DNA of 64,000 nt from Rhizobiales bacterium Ga0077537 (GCA_001464955.1 LNEM01000030.1:1070558-1134557); one strand, 5' to 3'. Counted from the first letter of the stretch, positions 13,570 to 20,007 are shown. Numbers and translations are program-made. The notes: a model not told the origin generated them from the sequence alone.

Positions 13570-14892
13570 TCAGTCGTATTGGCTCGCGGGCCAGTCGAGG
13601 CCGTAGTGATCGCGCAGCGTCGCGCCGTCGTAGTCGTCGCGAAAGAGGCCGCGCTTCCTGAGGATCGGCATCACCTCCGCGACGAACACGTCGAGCATCC
13701 AGGGCAGCACCGGCGGCATCACGTTGAAGCCGTCGGCGGCCCCGTCCTCGAGCCAATCCTGCATCAGGTCCGCCACCTGCTCCGGCGTGCCCGCGAAGAT
13801 GAAATGGCCACGCGCGCCTGCGAGATAGGCGAGCAGCTGTCGAAGCGTCGGTCGGTCGCGCCGGACGAGGCCGACGATGACTTCGGTCCGGCTGCGCGCC
13901 GCTTCGACCGAAGCAGGCGGCGGGAAATCCTCGGGACTGAGCGGGCGGTCGAGCGGCAAGTGCGAGAAATCATGGCCTCCGAACCGACCCGAGAGGCGCT
14001 TGCGCCCGACTTCCGGATCGGTGAGGTCGTCGAGTTCCCGCTGCAGCCGCTTCGCCTCGGCCTCCGTCGATCCGATCATCGGGCTGAGACCCGGCAGGAT
14101 GTGCACCTGCTCCGGCTTCCGCCCTGCTTCGACGACGCGCGCCTTGATGTCGGCATGGAACGCCTGCGCCGTCGCCTTCTCCATGTGTGCCGTGAAGATC
14201 GCATCGGCATGCCGCGCCGCGAACCCGCGCCCCGTGTCCGACGATCCCGCCTGGACGAGCACGGGGCGGCCTTGTGGCCCGCGCGGCAGGTTCATCGGCC
14301 CGGCGACGGCGTAGTGCGGACCCTTGTGCGCGATCGGCCGGATGCGGTCGGCGTGGGCGTAGTGACCGCTCTCGCGATCATCGACGATCGCGTCGCTGGC
14401 CCAGCTGTCCCACAGCGCCTTGACGACGGCCATGTACTCTTCGGCGCGCTCGTACCGGTCGGCGTGCGTCACCTGAGGCGCATCGCCGTAGTTCCGGGCC
14501 GCCGCGGCAGCCCACGTCGTGACGATGTTCCAGGCCACGCGCCCACCCGAGATGTGATCGAGCGAGGCGTACTGGCGCGCCAGATTGAACGGCTCGGTAT
14601 AGGTCGTCGATGCCGTCGCGATGAGGCCGATCTTCTCGGTCCTGGCCGCGATCGCCCCGAGCGCCGTGATGGGCTCGAGCCACGTCCGCCCCGCCTGATC
14701 GACGTCGTCGGCGAGGGCAAGCTGGTCGGCGAGAAAGATCGAGCAGAACTTTGCCGCTTCGGCCTTCTGCGCCAGCTCGACGTAATAGCGGATATCGGTA
14801 AGCGAGCGCTGCGACGCCGCTGGATGGCGCCACGACGCCTCGTGATGGCCGCGGCTCTGGATGAACAGGTTGAGGTGCAGGTGCCGTTGCAT
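13570..14892 (-). CDS. LLM-class flavin-dependent monooxygenase (NtaA/SnaA/DszA family)
   Basis: MQRHLHLNLFIQSRGHHEASWRHP N-terminus is typical of the NtaA/DszA group. About 440 aa. Trimmed to ATG 14892. Confidence 0.75.
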   Translation of the reverse strand: MQRHLHLNLFIQSRGHHEASWRHPAASQRSLTDIRYYVELAQKAEAAKFCSIFLADQLALADDVDQAGRTWLEPITALGAIAARTEKIGLIATASTTYTEPFNLARQYASLDHISGGRVAWNIVTTWAAAAARNYGDAPQVTHADRYERAEEYMAVVKALWDSWASDAIVDDRESGHYAHADRIRPIAHKGPHYAVAGPMNLPRGPQGRPVLVQAGSSDTGRGFAARHADAIFTAHMEKATAQAFHADIKARVVEAGRKPEQVHILPGLSPMIGSTEAEAKRLQRELDDLTDPEVGRKRLSGRFGGHDFSHLPLDRPLSPEDFPPPASVEAARSRTEVIVGLVRRDRPTLRQLLAYLAGARGHFIFAGTPEQVADLMQDWLEDGAADGFNVMPPVLPWMLDVFVAEVMPILRKRGLFRDDYDGATLRDHYGLDWPASQYD

Positions 14893-14970
14893 GGGGACAC
14901 TCGATTGCGGCGGATGTCGAATGTCCAAGCGTAGGCAGATTTGACGTCCGTCGCAAAGCGCGGTGTCGCG

Positions 14971-15468
14971 TCAGGGCGTCGGTTCGTCCTTGGGAGTGGC
15001 AGCCGGAGTATCGGCCGTCGCCGCGCCATGCACGCGCGCCAGCGCCTCCGCGATCCGCACGCTGTCGAGGTCGTCCTTGTGAATGACGTCGATCGCGCCC
15101 GCCTTGATCAGCACGCCGCGCCTCTGCCGGTCGACGGCGCCGCTGACCACGACGATCGGCCCGCTGTAGCCACAACGCCTGAGGAACGGGATCGTCTGCG
15201 TCGCGTTGTCATTGGGCTTCAGATAGTCGTCGAGAAAGATCAGCTCCGGATGCCGCTCGATGACCGCGTCGAGCGCGCTGCCGAGCGTCTTCGCCCGCCG
15301 GACCTGGATCGCGTAGCCGAACATGATATGCAGCGTCGCGCGGAGCCGGTCCGCGTCGAAATTCTCGTCCTCGACGATGAGAACGTCGGAAAGCGGCGGC
15401 AGTCCCATCCGCGTTTTCGTGACGTCTGCTTTTTTGGCGAGAAAGTTGCCGCCGGTTGAGTTGGACAT
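14971..15468 (-). CDS. response regulator, receiver domain only
   Basis: DVLIVEDENFD, ELIFLDDYL (acceptor Asp), VVVSG and IHKDD fit the CheY-like fold. No output domain. A roughly 20-aa N-terminal extension exists, so an alternative start at 15408 is possible. Confidence 0.8.
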   Translation of the reverse strand: MSNSTGGNFLAKKADVTKTRMGLPPLSDVLIVEDENFDADRLRATLHIMFGYAIQVRRAKTLGSALDAVIERHPELIFLDDYLKPNDNATQTIPFLRRCGYSGPIVVVSGAVDRQRRGVLIKAGAIDVIHKDDLDSVRIAEALARVHGAATADTPAATPKDEPTP

Positions 15469-15507
15469 GCTCGTTCTTTCTTGTTTCGGGTGTGCCTCGG
15501 CTGCGGA

Positions 15508-16674
15508 TCAGGTCTTGAGGGATTTCGGCCAGACGACATGGAACGTCGTGCCGCGACGCTTCGCGGGGTCCGAGATCACCTCGATCCGTCCGCCGAAGCG
15601 CTCGACGGTCTTTCGGACGAGGGCCAGTCCGATGCCGGCGCCGTCCGGCTCCTGCTCGCTGTCGGCGATCTGGCGAAACGGCAGGAAGATGGCCTCTTGC
15701 CACGCGGGGTCGATCCCGGGCCCGTCGTCGCTCACGCTGATGACGAGGTTCTCGCCGTCCACCCTGCAGTCGAGCGTGATCGTACCGGTCGTGAGGTCGT
15801 GGTGCTTGCTCGCATTGTCGGCGAGATTGCGCAACACGATGTCGAGCGGCTCGGCGAGCGTCTCGATCGTCGGCCAGTCGCCGGTGACGGCGACGCGGTG
15901 CTCCGAGCCGTGCGCCGCTGTCCGCGCGATCTCGCGGGCGAGGTCATGGGTATCGATCACTTCGAGACCATCCGTCTTCCGGCCGGCGCGGGCATAGTCG
16001 AGAAGCCCGCTCAGCATGGCATTCATGCGCCGCCCTTGATGCAGGCTTTTCTGCAGGGCTTCGCGCGCGACGTCGATCTGCCCCGCCTCCAGCGCTGCGA
16101 GCGCATCCGCCGAGCCGAACCGCAATGCCCTGAGTGGCGCTCTGAGGTCGTGAGAGATTACCGACGCGAACTCCTGCAGATCGGCGTTCGCTGCGGCGAG
16201 TTCGAGATTGGCGCGTTTGACGAGGCGCGATTGTGCGGCGACCTCGGCTTCCGCAATGGCACGCGCCCGGACTTCGGCGGCGAGCCTGTACTCCAGGTCG
16301 ACCCGCGAGATGGCCCGTGCGACCAGCAGGTAGTAGGAGTCCTCGCGCGGGCTCCAGAAGATCGCGAAATTGAGCCGTTCCTGAAGGCTGTCCGTGTTCT
16401 GCAGCAGCACGTTCGGAATGACGACCGATCGCTCGGGCTCCGAGACGAGGCGCTTGATATCGGCCTCGAAGCCGAGGAACACGGGAAGCGCGCTCTCGAG
16501 CCGAAGTCCGACCGGCATGGTTTCGATGAAATGCCCGAACGTTTGTCGGATCACGAGGTCGTGGTCGAGCCAGGCGACGCCGAACGTCCGCCGCTCGGCG
16601 AGAAAGCGCGCCATCGCCTCGAGCTGCGGCGCGTCGGGCCCGCGGATGTCAATGCTCGCGGCGGACGATGTCAT
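15508..16674 (-). CDS. soluble sensor histidine kinase (HisKA + HATPase_c) with an uncharacterised N-terminal sensor domain
   Basis: H-box FASVISHDLRAPLRAL, N-box LRNLADNASKH, G1 DDGPGID, G2 GAGIGLALV. No TM segments. The start overlaps the GTPase gene by 26 nt (alternative ATG at 16614). Confidence 0.85.
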   Translation of the reverse strand: MTSSAASIDIRGPDAPQLEAMARFLAERRTFGVAWLDHDLVIRQTFGHFIETMPVGLRLESALPVFLGFEADIKRLVSEPERSVVIPNVLLQNTDSLQERLNFAIFWSPREDSYYLLVARAISRVDLEYRLAAEVRARAIAEAEVAAQSRLVKRANLELAAANADLQEFASVISHDLRAPLRALRFGSADALAALEAGQIDVAREALQKSLHQGRRMNAMLSGLLDYARAGRKTDGLEVIDTHDLAREIARTAAHGSEHRVAVTGDWPTIETLAEPLDIVLRNLADNASKHHDLTTGTITLDCRVDGENLVISVSDDGPGIDPAWQEAIFLPFRQIADSEQEPDGAGIGLALVRKTVERFGGRIEVISDPAKRRGTTFHVVWPKSLKT

Positions 16675-17161
16675 CGGAGATCCGCTTGAAGGCAGGCACC
16701 ACGTTGAGGGCCGTCAGAGCACTCGTCCAGATGAGAGGTTGTCGGGCATCGCGGAGTGGCTCGGGCAGGATCGACGCGTCCGGCGCCCCCAGAAGATCGG
16801 TCTTGTTGACGATGAATGCGAACGACCGGCTCGGCATCGCGTTCTGGAAACTGTCGGCGAGCTTGACCATGTGCAGGAGCGTCGACTGTCGCATCGCGTC
16901 TCCGATGATCATGGCCGCCGAGGCGCCACGCGAATAGATGTGCTGGAAGATGCTCTCGCCGTAATTCCCGTCGAGATCCCAGATGACGAGTTCGACCGTC
17001 ATGGGACCATCCGGACTGTCGGCCTCGATGCGGTAGGTATAGAGATCGACGCCCATCGTCGCGATGTAGTCGGCTTTCATCTCGTCGTGCACCAGGCGGC
17101 GCACCAGCGACGTCTTGCCAACTCCGATCTCGCCGAGCAGCAGCAGCTTCTTCGTGATCAT
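16649..17161 (-). CDS. Ras-superfamily small GTPase (Rab/Rup-like)
   Basis: G1 GEIGVGKTS, switch I YIATMGVDLY, G3 WDLDG, G4 NKTD, G5 TSAL. 170 aa. The ATG overlaps the stop of the upstream OmpA-family gene (ATGA at 17158-17161). Confidence 0.8.
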   Translation of the reverse strand: MITKKLLLLGEIGVGKTSLVRRLVHDEMKADYIATMGVDLYTYRIEADSPDGPMTVELVIWDLDGNYGESIFQHIYSRGASAAMIIGDAMRQSTLLHMVKLADSFQNAMPSRSFAFIVNKTDLLGAPDASILPEPLRDARQPLIWTSALTALNVVPAFKRISDDIVRREH

Positions 17162-19290
17162 GGCGATCGCCGCCTCTCGCCCTCGAAGGCGAGCTCGAAT
17201 TCGACCCGCCGGTTGGCGCTTCCCGGCCCGGTGCCGGGGGCGAGGTTGACGCCATTGGCGCGCCCGACGGGAATGAGCAACTCGCGGTTGACGCCGAGCG
17301 CCTCGATCGCGTTTGCGACCTTGTCGGCGCGGCCCTGCGCAAGCGGCGTGTTTCGGGCCGTCGTGCCGGCTTCATCGGTGTACCCGACGATACGGATCGA
17401 AGCGTTCGCGGCCTTGAGCAGGTCGGCGAGCTTGCCGATCGTGGCCGCTGCATCGTCCGGATCGCGAAAATCGGTTTCCGCATCGAAGAACACGGCGTGC
17501 CCTTTGACGAAGTCGGCGAGCGCCTCGCGTGCCGTCGGCGGACGCGGCCGATGTCCGGCGAGTTCGCGCTCGAGTTCTGCGATGCGCGCGGCGAGGCGAT
17601 CGTTGAGCTGCCCGAGCCGCTCTGCGAGGCGCTCGTCGACACGCTCGATCTTCTCCGCCAGCGGCGTGACGGTTTGCCGGAGCTGCAAAGTCGAGAGAAG
17701 TCCGGCCAGTCTGTCGATGAGGCTGGCCATGTCGTTGGCGAGGTCGGTTGCGGATTGCGGCGTGCGCGCCTCGGGTGCGATCGCCACGCCGGACAGGCGC
17801 TCGATGGCTTCGACCGCCGCCGTCATCCGCGCCGCGGTCGTCCTGAGCCCCGGCGGAACGTCGTGGGTCACGCCGCCAGTGCCGAGGGCTTCGAGTTCTC
17901 CCTTCACTGCGGGAGCCGCGACCGCGATCTCGTCGAGAGCAGCCTGGAGCCTTACATCGGAAGCCTTGGCTCGCGCCCCGGCGACGTCGCTCGTGATATT
18001 GGTGAGACGGCTGTTCGCAGCCAGGACGGCCCGTCGGAACGTCTCCGCCGTGACGCGACCTTCGACGTCGGTGCTGGGCAGAATGCCGATGGCATCGGTG
18101 AGCACGGCACTGGGCGCGACCGCCTTCAGGTCACCGACGACGCGCCGACGGATGTCGGTGTCGGGGACGAGGCCGGTGACCCAGATCCTCTGGCCGCCGC
18201 GCTCGACATGGGCCTTGACCGGAAAGCCTTTCAACGAAGGGATTGCGGCGATCGCCGCATCGGCGCGCGTCTGGAGGTCGTTCGTCACGAAGCTCACATA
18301 AGCCGTCCAGGCGCCGAACGCGACGATCGGCAGCCCGATGAGCCACAGCAGCGCCCGCATCGTGCGACGCGCGCTCGCGTTCGACAGTTCCTGCGTCCGT
18401 TCTTGCGCAACGTCCTCGATGCGCTTCGCCAGGCCCGCCAGCAGAGCCTCGCGAGCCGCCGTTCTGACAGCCCCTTCGGGCTTGGTCTGCTCGATGCCGT
18501 GGTCGTCGCCGAGCGCGCTGTTGATCTCCTGATCGAGCACCGTGTCGATGCCCGAGAGCGCGCTGCCGGCGCACTTTACGGCGAGGAGTTTTTCCGGCGT
18601 TCCGCGCAGGTAGATGCGGTGAGCGTCGAGGTCGAGTGTTCGCAACCCGGTCTTGTTCGCCGCGAAGGCTTCCTCGGCGAAGTCGGTGATGGCTGAGATG
18701 AAGCCGCTGACCAGCGTATTTCTGTTCGATCCGTCCGGCTGCGCGGGATCCTCCTCCCGCTGCCAATGATGCAGGAGGGCGCCTGAGCCGCGCCTGACGA
18801 GATAGATGTCGTCGACCTTGAGCTGCTGGGTCTCCGCGAGCGCGAGCTCGGCCATGCTGCGCCCGCTGGTCAGGCTTCGCATCCAGAGCGAGAAGCGGTT
18901 GCGCGTCAATCCGGCCTCGAGACGCCGGTTGATTTGCAGCATCAGATCCCGGATCGCGCTCGACACATACCGTGACACCATCTCGCCGATGCGCGGATAG
19001 AGTGAGCCCGCGATCTGATCCTGCATGTGCTGCGACTTGATTTCCGTGCGGAGTGTCCGCAGCACCATCGGCGCCATGGCATCGGCGAGGTCCTTGTGCC
19101 GTGTCGCCTCGGCATCCTTCAGCGCGCGATCGATCACCCGGGCCGTAGCCGCCTGGAAGTTCTCGTCGCTGCCGGCACGCTTCTGCAACTCGCCGATGCG
19201 GCCCGCCAGCGTATCGAGTTCGCGCGCTTCCCGATCGAACAGAAGCTCTTTCAGGCGCGCAACCGTCTGCTGCGGTTGAGGATCGGTCAT
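17158..19290 (-). CDS. OmpA-family transmembrane protein (cytoplasmic coiled-coil + roadblock/longin-like segment, 1 TM, BON-like domain, coiled coil, C-terminal OmpA peptidoglycan-binding domain)
   Basis: Trimmed to ATG 19290 (GGAGAG upstream). TM LLWLIGLPIVAFGAWTAYVSFV (aa 314-335). C-terminus IRIVGYTDEAGTTARNTPLAQGRADKVANAI...NRRVEFEL is an OmpA_C-like motif. aa 345-405 (LKGFPVKAHVERGGQRIWVTGLVPD) is BON-like. Confidence 0.8.
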   Translation of the reverse strand: MTDPQPQQTVARLKELLFDREARELDTLAGRIGELQKRAGSDENFQAATARVIDRALKDAEATRHKDLADAMAPMVLRTLRTEIKSQHMQDQIAGSLYPRIGEMVSRYVSSAIRDLMLQINRRLEAGLTRNRFSLWMRSLTSGRSMAELALAETQQLKVDDIYLVRRGSGALLHHWQREEDPAQPDGSNRNTLVSGFISAITDFAEEAFAANKTGLRTLDLDAHRIYLRGTPEKLLAVKCAGSALSGIDTVLDQEINSALGDDHGIEQTKPEGAVRTAAREALLAGLAKRIEDVAQERTQELSNASARRTMRALLWLIGLPIVAFGAWTAYVSFVTNDLQTRADAAIAAIPSLKGFPVKAHVERGGQRIWVTGLVPDTDIRRRVVGDLKAVAPSAVLTDAIGILPSTDVEGRVTAETFRRAVLAANSRLTNITSDVAGARAKASDVRLQAALDEIAVAAPAVKGELEALGTGGVTHDVPPGLRTTAARMTAAVEAIERLSGVAIAPEARTPQSATDLANDMASLIDRLAGLLSTLQLRQTVTPLAEKIERVDERLAERLGQLNDRLAARIAELERELAGHRPRPPTAREALADFVKGHAVFFDAETDFRDPDDAAATIGKLADLLKAANASIRIVGYTDEAGTTARNTPLAQGRADKVANAIEALGVNRELLIPVGRANGVNLAPGTGPGSANRRVEFELAFEGERRRSP

Positions 19291-19368
19291 TGGCTCTCCG
19301 GCTCCTGGCGGCACCCACCGAGCCTTTTTGCGCCACTGGGAACGTGGCGTCGGCACGTCATGGGGCGG

Positions 19369-19677
19369 CTAGTCGTTGCCGATCTTTCGAACCTTCGTAC
19401 TGAGCTCGGCGATGCTTTCCGCGAGCAGATCGAGGTCGCGCCTCCGATCATTTCCAACCTCTGCCGAAATGGCGTCGAGCCGTGCCTGGATTGCGTCCAG
19501 CTTCCGATGCAGACCCTGCTCGAGTTCCCGCACGCGTGCCTCGATCAGCGCCAGTCGCGCATCGCTGTCGCGCTTGAACTCGCCGAACAGCAGCTCCCTG
19601 ATCTGCTGCATCTTGTCGTCAAACGGGTCTTGGCTGCCCGAACCGTTGCGGAACTCGCCGAACATCGACGTTGTCAT
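19369..19677 (-). CDS. small coiled-coil protein (hypothetical), first gene of the GTPase operon
   Basis: Trimmed to ATG 19677 (MTTSMFGEF). Heptad-rich RLALIEARVRELEQGLHRKLDAIQARLDAI. Shares an (I/L)(R/K)ELLF motif with the N-terminus of the next gene. Confidence 0.6.
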   Translation of the reverse strand: MTTSMFGEFRNGSGSQDPFDDKMQQIRELLFGEFKRDSDARLALIEARVRELEQGLHRKLDAIQARLDAISAEVGNDRRRDLDLLAESIAELSTKVRKIGND

Positions 19678-20007
19678 AGGCTCTGGTCCTGACGCTCTAC
19701 GAATGGATGGCAAACGCGCCACGAGACGCCCTTGGTGCTGGTCGATCTAGCTTATAAGGCCTTGCCGGATGGAAGTGAATTTCCAATGCAGCCGCCAATT
19801 ATGCGTTTTTGCCATTGGTCCTATTCCACATAAGCGAGACCAATCGTTAACGTTTTCGCCCAACCGGGACGGGGCGGGGCCGATCGCTGGCGGCGGGGGG
19901 ACGCGCGCGAAGGCATGAGGAACGGTAAATGATTGCCGCCGCTGACGGCACGCCGCATCGCGACGACCGCCAGGCAGGGCTCGCCGAACACCGGCACCGG
20001 CCTCGAG

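Follow-up and report, generated by a model that had tools for sequence, protein, structure and literature searches.

How might a small GTPase of the eukaryotic Rab type be wired, in a bacterium, to the cell envelope on one side and to a two-component phosphorelay on the other? The question is raised by a gene cluster of Rhizobiales bacterium Ga0077537, located in a 64,000-nucleotide (nt) stretch of its genome (GCA_001464955.1 LNEM01000030.1:1070558-1134557; henceforth the window, with positions counted from its first letter), in which the GTPase switch, a membrane partner, a histidine kinase and a receiver are packed within 4.7 kb. The initial annotation presented this cluster as an operon whose composition resembled that of no characterized system. 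Only part of that claim holds: the composition has been published as the Group 1 Rup system, defined computationally from genomes by Wuichet and Søgaard-Andersen (2014, Genome Biol Evol; PMC4316618), and the literature searchable here, which omits most subscription journals, yielded no experimental work on a Group 1 Rup system. The locus is a further, Hyphomicrobiaceae member of this described but experimentally uncharacterized system. What is new here is the prediction of a Roadblock fold in the membrane protein and a PAS fold in the effector, a wider list of outputs, a clade-specific receiver, and the loss of an effector glutamine.

The operon and its identity

As described in 2014, the Group 1 Rup system consists of a coiled-coil protein, DUFY; a protein in which an unknown domain is often followed by a transmembrane (TM) segment and OmpA, DUFX; a GTPase without the glutamine of the G3 motif; and a signaling output protein with an invariant glutamine in its N-terminal region, which may be a histidine kinase or else a diguanylate cyclase/phosphodiesterase; the neighborhood is given in Table S2 as DUFY>DUFX:OmpA>Rup (PMC4316618). 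The same four core genes, in the same order, are found in the window, where they are followed by a fifth (aa, amino acids):

19369-19677, minus strand: DUFY, a small cytoplasmic coiled-coil protein of 102 aa (weak coiled-coil-type Pfam matches)
17158-19290, minus strand: membrane protein of 710 aa with the order DUFX, TM helix, BON-like segment, coiled coil, OmpA (open reading frame, Pfam, hydropathy, orthologue alignment)
17158-17161, minus strand: ATGA stop/start overlap of the DUFX and GTPase genes (read in the sequence)
16649-17161, minus strand: Group 1 Rup small GTPase of 170 aa (Pfam Roc and Ras, E=1.5e-17 each)
15508-16674, minus strand: soluble histidine kinase of 388 aa, with a PAS-like domain, a helical linker, HisKA (H175) and HATPase_c (Pfam, alignment)
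14971-15468, minus strand: receiver-only response regulator of 165 aa (Pfam Response_reg, E=1e-9)

All five open reading frames lie on the minus strand between 14971 and 19677, in the transcription order DUFY, DUFX, GTPase, kinase, receiver, exactly where they had been annotated, and the tight junctions claimed for them are all present: besides the ATGA overlap, the GTPase and kinase genes share 26 nt, given the kinase start at ATG 16674 (the geometry is identical in the related locus L001 of our survey), and 39 nt separate the kinase from the receiver. The 102-aa and 710-aa frames are each read from an ATG, with the open frame reaching a GTG at 19722 and 19356, respectively; the ATG starts are supported by orthologues (102 aa and 727-766 aa) that begin at equivalent residues. 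A hydropathy scan finds one hydrophobic segment in the 710-aa protein and none in DUFY, the GTPase, the kinase or the receiver, so the kinase is soluble, as proposed. None of the five proteins has a DNA-binding or other output domain in Pfam or NCBIfam, again in agreement with the initial annotation, and NCBIfam adds nothing more specific than Pfam. No consensus promoter or terminator was seen in a scan of the sequence inside the operon, the 64-kb window holds no second copy of any module component, and Rfam yields zero matches across its whole length.

The 170-aa protein had been called a Ras-superfamily GTPase, and the Pfam matches as well as the alignment bear this out, with intact motifs G1 (GEIGVGKTS), G2 (T35), G3 (WDLDGN), G4 (NKTD) and G5 (TSAL). 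Its nearest solved structures are eukaryotic Rabs (Ypt7, Rab1, Rab7; E about 1e-14), and, among prokaryotic GTPases, the Group 1 Rup proteins have been described as resembling eukaryotic Rab/Ras/Rho/Ran most closely (PMC4316618). The G3 aspartate, which the MglA family, unlike Rup, lacks (PMC4316618), is retained, and the G3 glycine is followed by asparagine rather than glutamine. The position of Ras G12 is taken by isoleucine, in the window as well as in L001, and that of Ras Q61 by asparagine in the window, a combination that leads one to expect slow intrinsic GTP hydrolysis and dependence on a partner. Among the near homologues of this GTPase, almost all come from Hyphomicrobiaceae metagenome bins, one of which (L009) encodes a protein with 96% identity.

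Of the six features of the published system that can be tested here, five are present, and the one that is absent is the invariant effector glutamine, which most of the window's clade has lost from its conserved position. The other departure is an addition, the adjacent receiver-only regulator, which does not figure in the 2014 description (PMC4316618).

Distribution of the system

The reach of the system was surveyed by a genome scan for the GTPase, with one genome per species, which gave 80 loci, 63 bacterial and 17 archaeal, whose open reading frames were then searched with profiles built from our own alignments. DUFX is present at 58 of the 63 bacterial loci, in more than 10 phyla, and at four of the five bacterial loci without it, the contig reaches less than 0.7 kb upstream; the same profile search recovers DUFX at none of the 17 archaeal loci. 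The 710-aa protein of the window is matched by this profile at 8e-102. Where both genes are found, DUFX and the GTPase gene are closely coupled, with a 4-nt stop/start overlap at 19 of 55 loci and a gap of at most 30 nt at 47 of 55. At all 56 bacterial loci with both genes, the gene immediately before DUFX, in the same orientation, is a DUFY homologue, it being understood that DUFY, like the receiver, was assigned by strand and position, given that longest-frame calling picked antisense frames for these two genes in this high-GC DNA. A word-indexed homologue search with the DUFX N-terminus returned 16 matches, and a full HMMER scan with the DUFX alignment, 3315, of which 911 score at 1e-30 or better; because the profile also spans the TM helix, BON and part of OmpA, the weaker matches may be to OmpA only, and we do not take 3315 for the size of the family.

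Close to the window, conservation is complete. Related Hyphomicrobiaceae genomes retain all five genes in the same order and orientation, as a test of synteny proposed with the annotation asked, and the full set persists down to 50-51% GTPase identity, an arrangement far beyond chance. Further away, a gammaproteobacterium, Anaerolineae and other bins have the core of four genes, lacking OmpA as well as the receiver. The members named in Table S2 of the 2014 study belong to Bacteroidetes, Chloroflexi, Cyanobacteria, Nitrospirae and four classes of proteobacteria, with Mesorhizobium loti as the sole alphaproteobacterium and no Hyphomicrobiaceae (PMC4316618); our scan also found a Mesorhizobium locus (L077), from the genus of that published member, with the same DUFY-DUFX-GTPase layout. 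Taken together, these neighborhoods identify the operon as a genuine member of the Group 1 Rup system, and the system itself reaches much further than the 2014 sample showed.

Where a GTPase is paired with DUFX, the G3 glutamine is missing: in all 59 such pairs, a residue other than glutamine follows the G3 glycine. In a wider count, the bacterial loci that carry DUFX gave 71 G3 motifs, of which 2 end in glutamine, neither of them from a DUFX-paired GTPase, and the residue is kept in 22 of the 28 archaeal Rab-like GTPases of the same scan, all without DUFX. Asgard loci (L048, L052, L058, L059, L068, L086) encode Rab-like GTPases with the G3 glutamine and without DUFX or DUFY, often as tandem pairs. 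Variant layouts also occur in bacteria, at L025, L060 (Gemmatimonadota), L041, L045, L064 and L073 (Chloroflexi): some have tandem GTPase genes after DUFX, and in others, the GTPase-effector pair stands apart from, or divergent to, DUFY-DUFX, an arrangement that the 2014 table also gives for Chloroflexus (PMC4316618).

A Roadblock-like core predicted in the membrane partner

The 710-aa protein combines a cytoplasmic part, the DUFX region proper, with a single membrane span and an extracytoplasmic end:

18487-18819, minus strand: predicted Roadblock/LC7-like core of DUFX, residues 158-268 (AlphaFold2 and Foldseek)
18286-18354, minus strand: single TM helix, residues 313-335 (hydropathy scan)
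18064-18207, minus strand: weak BON-like, putatively periplasmic segment (NCBIfam ArfA_OmpATb_N, E=1e-3)
17215-17454, minus strand: OmpA_C peptidoglycan-binding domain (Pfam OmpA, E=2.7e-11)

In 2014, DUFX and the N-terminal region of the effector were both treated as unknown, and Rup GTPases were not predicted to work with MglB homologues (PMC4316618). An AlphaFold2 model of residues 1-312, built on a 17-sequence alignment (mean predicted local distance difference test score, pLDDT, 65), now suggests otherwise. After an N-terminal part of long helices, predicted with low confidence, residues 158-268 form a core with the topology beta-beta-alpha-beta-beta-beta-alpha, in which pLDDT exceeds 70 in the strands and the final helix and drops to 44-58 in residues 181-210, the loop and the central helix. 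When this core was compared with the PDB by Foldseek, all of the top 50 matches were Roadblock/LC7 proteins or domains, apart from four longin-type coatomer/TRAPP subunits, at E-values of about 3e-4 and probabilities of 0.99-1.0. The matches include dynein LC7, MglC, Asgard Roadblock proteins and MglB (1j3w, 6izw, and 3t12, the MglA-MglB complex), and the best are LAMTOR subunits and the C-terminal domains of RagA/C. We, therefore, assign the cytoplasmic core of DUFX to the Roadblock/LC7 fold with moderate confidence. The Roadblock/LC7 partner that the initial annotation had thought to look for would then exist, as a predicted domain in the core of the membrane protein; a separate protein of this kind, or one that Pfam detects, is not encoded among the five genes.

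The extracytoplasmic end is more readily recognized. The C-terminal OmpA domain is confirmed by Pfam and by PDB matches to the C-terminal domains of YiaD, Rv0899 and OmpA. The BON domain suggested at the outset did not become firm: the evidence comes down to the weak ArfA_OmpATb_N match, a PDB profile match to Rv0899 that spans BON and OmpA, and Pfam BON in 5 of 57 orthologues. Across these 57 DUFX proteins, Pfam finds OmpA in 32, SH3_3 in 7 and BON in 5, the rest having short tails, so that wall binding appears to be common but not universal, and the OmpA anchor, present here as annotated, is a trait of some lineages and not of the whole system.

DUFY, encoded directly upstream, begins with the motif IRELLFG, and the N-terminus of DUFY (IRELLFGEFKRDSDARLALIEAR) has one motif in common with that of the DUFX protein (LKELLFDREARELDTLAGRIGEL, 19200-19290), which suggests related helices that may pair.

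A common input-like domain in exchangeable effectors

The fourth gene varies between lineages. Of its products at 56 loci, 40 carry HisKA (nine of these being hybrid kinases with a receiver domain and six with an Hpt domain), six a class III nucleotidyl cyclase, three a sigma-54 activator, two HD-GYP and two a second GTPase. Common to this variety is one N-terminal domain, which an iterated profile recovers in 37 of the 56 products, sigma-54 activators, HD-GYP proteins and cyclases included. That such varied outputs stand behind a single input-like domain is our principal argument for a flow from the GTPase module to the effector and not the reverse.

In the window, this domain belongs to the kinase, which the N-terminal profile matches:

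16300-16632, minus strand: PAS-like N-terminal domain of the kinase, residues about 15-125 (orthologue PAS_4 matches and a low-confidence model)

The homologous region of several orthologues matches Pfam PAS_4 (best in L079, E=1.8e-8), and the AlphaFold2 model of the window kinase shows a PAS topology followed by a long helix leading into HisKA; the model was relied on solely in combination with the PAS_4 matches. Almost all Foldseek matches of this region are LOV, PYP or PAS domains, with E-values from 1e-3 to 2e-2, and three Roadblock/dynein chains appear lower among them. It is, accordingly, likely that the kinase N-terminus is a PAS-like domain common to the effectors of Rup systems, as far as profiles and models can tell. 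Cytoplasmic PAS-histidine kinases that signal to single-domain receivers, such as the LOV-kinase YF1 (PDB 4gcz, itself among the Foldseek matches), have the same order of PAS, helical linker, DHp and catalytic domain, but the PAS-like domain of the window differs from theirs in showing no cofactor-family signature. The strict co-occurrence of the domain with the GTPase module suggests that its input is a protein rather than a small molecule or light.

The kinase and the adjacent receiver carry all the classical two-component features that were checked, so that phosphotransfer between them is predicted from sequence. In the kinase, HisKA (3e-9) and HATPase_c (2e-23) are recognized by Pfam, and H175 as well as the N, G1 and G2 boxes (NLADNASKH, DDGPGI, GAGIGL) are invariant in the alignment; in the receiver, E33/D34, D81, S109 and K131 align with D12/D13, D57, T87 and K109 of CheY, so that all five CheY-type residues of phospho-acceptance are in place, as expected of the receiver-only regulator originally annotated. 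Within the Hyphomicrobiaceae clade, the receiver is the best conserved of the five proteins (identity 68-86%; DUFY, 51-76%; GTPase, 50-67%; kinase, 45-55%; DUFX, 38-51%). Across lineages, the fifth gene encodes a receiver domain at 21 of 40 loci, assigned by strand and position as above, and in other lineages includes NtrC-, OmpR- or LuxR-type regulators; an output-less receiver is thus a mark of the Hyphomicrobiaceae clade, present here but, like the OmpA anchor, not system-wide.

Two side observations concern the receivers. In this clade, the receiver has a conserved N-terminal extension of 27 residues (MxxSTGGNFLAKKADxTKSRMGLPxLSD). At L007 (7749-14504), the GTPase gene precedes that of a 991-aa TPR and receiver protein, and the next genes encode a single-domain receiver, CheW and two MCPs, a layout that links the module to a chemosensory cluster.

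Upstream region and flanking genes

Transcription of the operon would start in the following region:

19678-20007, minus strand: intergenic region, putative promoter/operator (lower GC; sequence read directly)

The AT-richer stretch pointed out upstream of the operon is real but modest, with a GC content of 0.58-0.59 at 19723-20007, compared with 0.62-0.70 inside the operon. No sigma-70 consensus was found in 19678-20007. An inverted repeat, ATTGGTC-N17-GACCAAT in minus-strand reading, occupies 19814-19844. ATTGG/CCAAT is found in this region four times within about 70 nt, a possible operator.

On the other side, a luciferase-like monooxygenase gene (13570-14928, same strand) begins 42-78 nt past the receiver, and the receiver gene of L001 has the same downstream neighbor; the monooxygenase gene may be co-transcribed with the operon. 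In one or both of the related genomes examined, metabolic genes (this one and a CoA transferase gene) again flank the operon, which points to a stable place on the chromosome.

How the module may work

We propose, with a probability of about 0.6, that the locus is a kinase-output Group 1 Rup module of the Hyphomicrobiaceae with a cognate single-domain receiver, working in the following manner. The DUFX protein would reside in the inner membrane, with its BON-like and OmpA_C end tethered to peptidoglycan and its cytoplasmic helical region and Roadblock-like domain probably paired with DUFY. By analogy with the action of MglB on MglA, and of Ragulator on the Rag GTPases, the Roadblock-like domain would bind the Rab-like GTPase and set its nucleotide state, conceivably as a GTPase-activating protein (GAP) or as a guanine nucleotide exchange factor (GEF), or else its location. 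GTP-bound, the GTPase would engage the PAS-like domain of the soluble kinase and alter its autophosphorylation, and the kinase would phosphorylate the receiver-only regulator, which would act by binding other proteins. A putative signal would in this scheme run from the membrane protein through the GTPase to the phosphorelay and the putative targets of the receiver.

Several points weigh against this proposal. The DUFX model is of moderate quality, and the Foldseek E-values are of the order of 1e-4. Robl_LC7 gives zero Pfam matches in the 57 DUFX orthologues at E-values up to 1, and a profile search of PDB sequences with the DUFX protein finds the OmpA/BON part and no Roadblock; no sequence method detects Roadblock in DUFX, so that the fold is assigned from predicted structure alone. 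The same invisibility to sequence methods would explain why the 2014 study concluded that Rup has no MglB-type partner. The DUFX alignment contains no invariant polar residue, so that the protein supplies no obvious catalytic residue and might serve as a scaffold, with neither GAP nor GEF activity. For the kinase N-terminus, a homologue search gave a single match, and the model, built on two sequences, has a pLDDT of only 61. The effector glutamine is lost in the window, so that the published step in which this residue is supplied in trans does not fit this member. No terminator is predicted between the receiver and monooxygenase genes, and the transcription unit may, therefore, be longer than five genes. 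Finally, the interactions, the nucleotide binding and the co-transcription that the proposal invokes are themselves predictions.

That glutamine is also central to the published hypothesis, namely, that the N-terminal region of the effector is a GAP that donates a catalytic glutamine in trans to a GTPase lacking its own in G3 (PMC4316618), in which case, the kinase would regulate the GTPase at least as much as it is regulated, and the membrane protein would be nothing but an anchor. Across the family, a candidate is found in the ..EQQL motif, where the PAS-like domain ends: it is the sole well-conserved glutamine, kept in 24 of 31 aligned effectors, and we equate it with the invariant glutamine of the 2014 paper (PMC4316618) by inference. 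In the window, however, it aligns with Tyr129, and the position is tyrosine, valine or leucine in the window, L001, L002, L012 and L014, although L016 and L011 keep a glutamine near it; no other glutamine of the N-terminal region is conserved in alignments of either 7 or 37 sequences. Most GTPases of the same clade (window, L001, L002, L012, L016) have asparagine after the G3 glycine, which points to a different catalytic solution, and this residue and the loss of the kinase glutamine may have co-varied in compensation. Given, in addition, that the predicted Roadblock fold of DUFX is the better-precedented regulator, we regard catalysis by the kinase as unlikely for this member. The loss of the glutamine bears on the mechanism and not on homology. 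About equally unlikely as a complete account, but compatible with and overlapping the proposed envelope-to-kinase route, is a spatial role, in which the GTPase would mark an envelope site set by the wall-bound protein and recruit the kinase there, its nucleotide cycle encoding location instead of an outside signal. MglA, the closest characterized bacterial small GTPase, works in this way with a Roadblock partner, according to two reports (PMC9481161, PMC13408092); the wall-binding domains of many DUFX proteins (OmpA in 32 of 57, SH3_3 in 7, BON in 5) would fix such a complex, and Pfam and NCBIfam recognize no ligand-binding sensor domain in the five proteins. But many orthologues, for example, in Chloroflexi, have a short extracytoplasmic tail and no wall-binding domain, the outputs are classic signaling enzymes and transcription activators, and no motility or division genes lie near the operon in the window or at two related loci.

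Two further possibilities fare worse. The actinobacterial conservon, CvnA-D, unites a membrane sensor kinase, a free-standing Roadblock protein, a DUF742 protein and an MglA-family GTPase, without a response regulator (PMC13343842), and the 2014 authors themselves drew the analogy (PMC4316618), so that one could picture the kinase as input and the GTPase with the membrane protein as output, as proposed for CvnA-D. The resemblance is one of somewhat similar function. CvnA has TM segments, HAMP and a C-terminal LPxR, whereas the kinase of the window is soluble, lacks all of these and ends in ...VVWPKSLKT; none of the five proteins has a Pfam match to Robl_LC7 or DUF742, the counterparts of CvnB and CvnC, and the predicted Roadblock-like domain is fused to a wall-anchored protein; the GTPase is Rup/Rab-like, with the G3 aspartate, unlike CvnD; and the kinase has its own adjacent receiver. 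As cyclases, HD-GYP proteins and sigma-54 activators, all of them outputs, replace the kinase in other lineages, flow in the conservon direction is improbable. Least probable of all, and very unlikely, is a mobile conflict or antiphage defense system built on the NTPase: combinations of NTPases with membrane and wall-binding parts are known from some conflict systems (PMC7159879), but the only PADLOC matches are generic (MotB-like OmpA at 9e-5 and a receiver fragment), Pfam and NCBIfam find no effector nuclease, protease or toxin domain in the five proteins, and the recurring metabolic flanks speak for a stable chromosomal place.

Likeness to other GTPase systems

Membership of the locus in the conservon or MglAB systems was considered and rejected, on the soluble kinase, the absence of a DUF742 or Robl_LC7 match and the G3 aspartate of the GTPase; identity as a defense system was rejected as well, as the PADLOC matches are only generic. 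With MglA/MglB of Myxococcus xanthus and Thermus, the window has in common a small Ras-superfamily GTPase and, if the predicted fold is right, a Roadblock-fold regulator. MglB, however, is a small soluble dimer, whereas the Roadblock-like fold of the window would sit inside a 710-aa membrane protein, and MglA/MglB have no operon link to a kinase or a wall-binding protein. The juxtaposition of a Rab-like GTPase with a membrane-anchored protein of predicted Roadblock fold is also reminiscent of Rag-Ragulator and of Rabs with their LAMTOR/TRAPP regulators, but DUFX has no detectable sequence similarity to these regulators, and the window lacks the lipid anchor, the heterodimeric GTPase and the trafficking machinery of the eukaryotic systems, its output being a two-component phosphorelay.

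Implications

The locus adds no new system: it places a described one in the Hyphomicrobiaceae, where a clade-specific receiver accompanies it and the proposed catalytic glutamine is missing. The fold predictions, nevertheless, turn two unknown domains into testable ideas, a wall-tethered regulator of the Roadblock type and a swappable PAS-like effector domain. If confirmed, they would reveal a G-protein-style signaling route in bacteria, from the envelope to a phosphorelay, and would bear on the origin of the pairing between eukaryotic small GTPases and Roadblock/longin regulators.

A broader generalization, to which we give somewhat less than even chances, is that DUFX is a cryptic Roadblock/LC7 domain throughout, that the Group 1 Rup systems are a widespread, membrane-anchored partnership of a Rab-like GTPase with Roadblock, and that the PAS-like domain of their effectors is a portable GTPase-effector domain. 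Were this true, the Rag-Ragulator and Rab-TRAPP/longin partnerships would have a bacterial counterpart, possibly passed on together with the GTPase itself, and a single portable domain would couple the same switch to kinases, cyclases, HD-GYP enzymes and sigma-54 activators.

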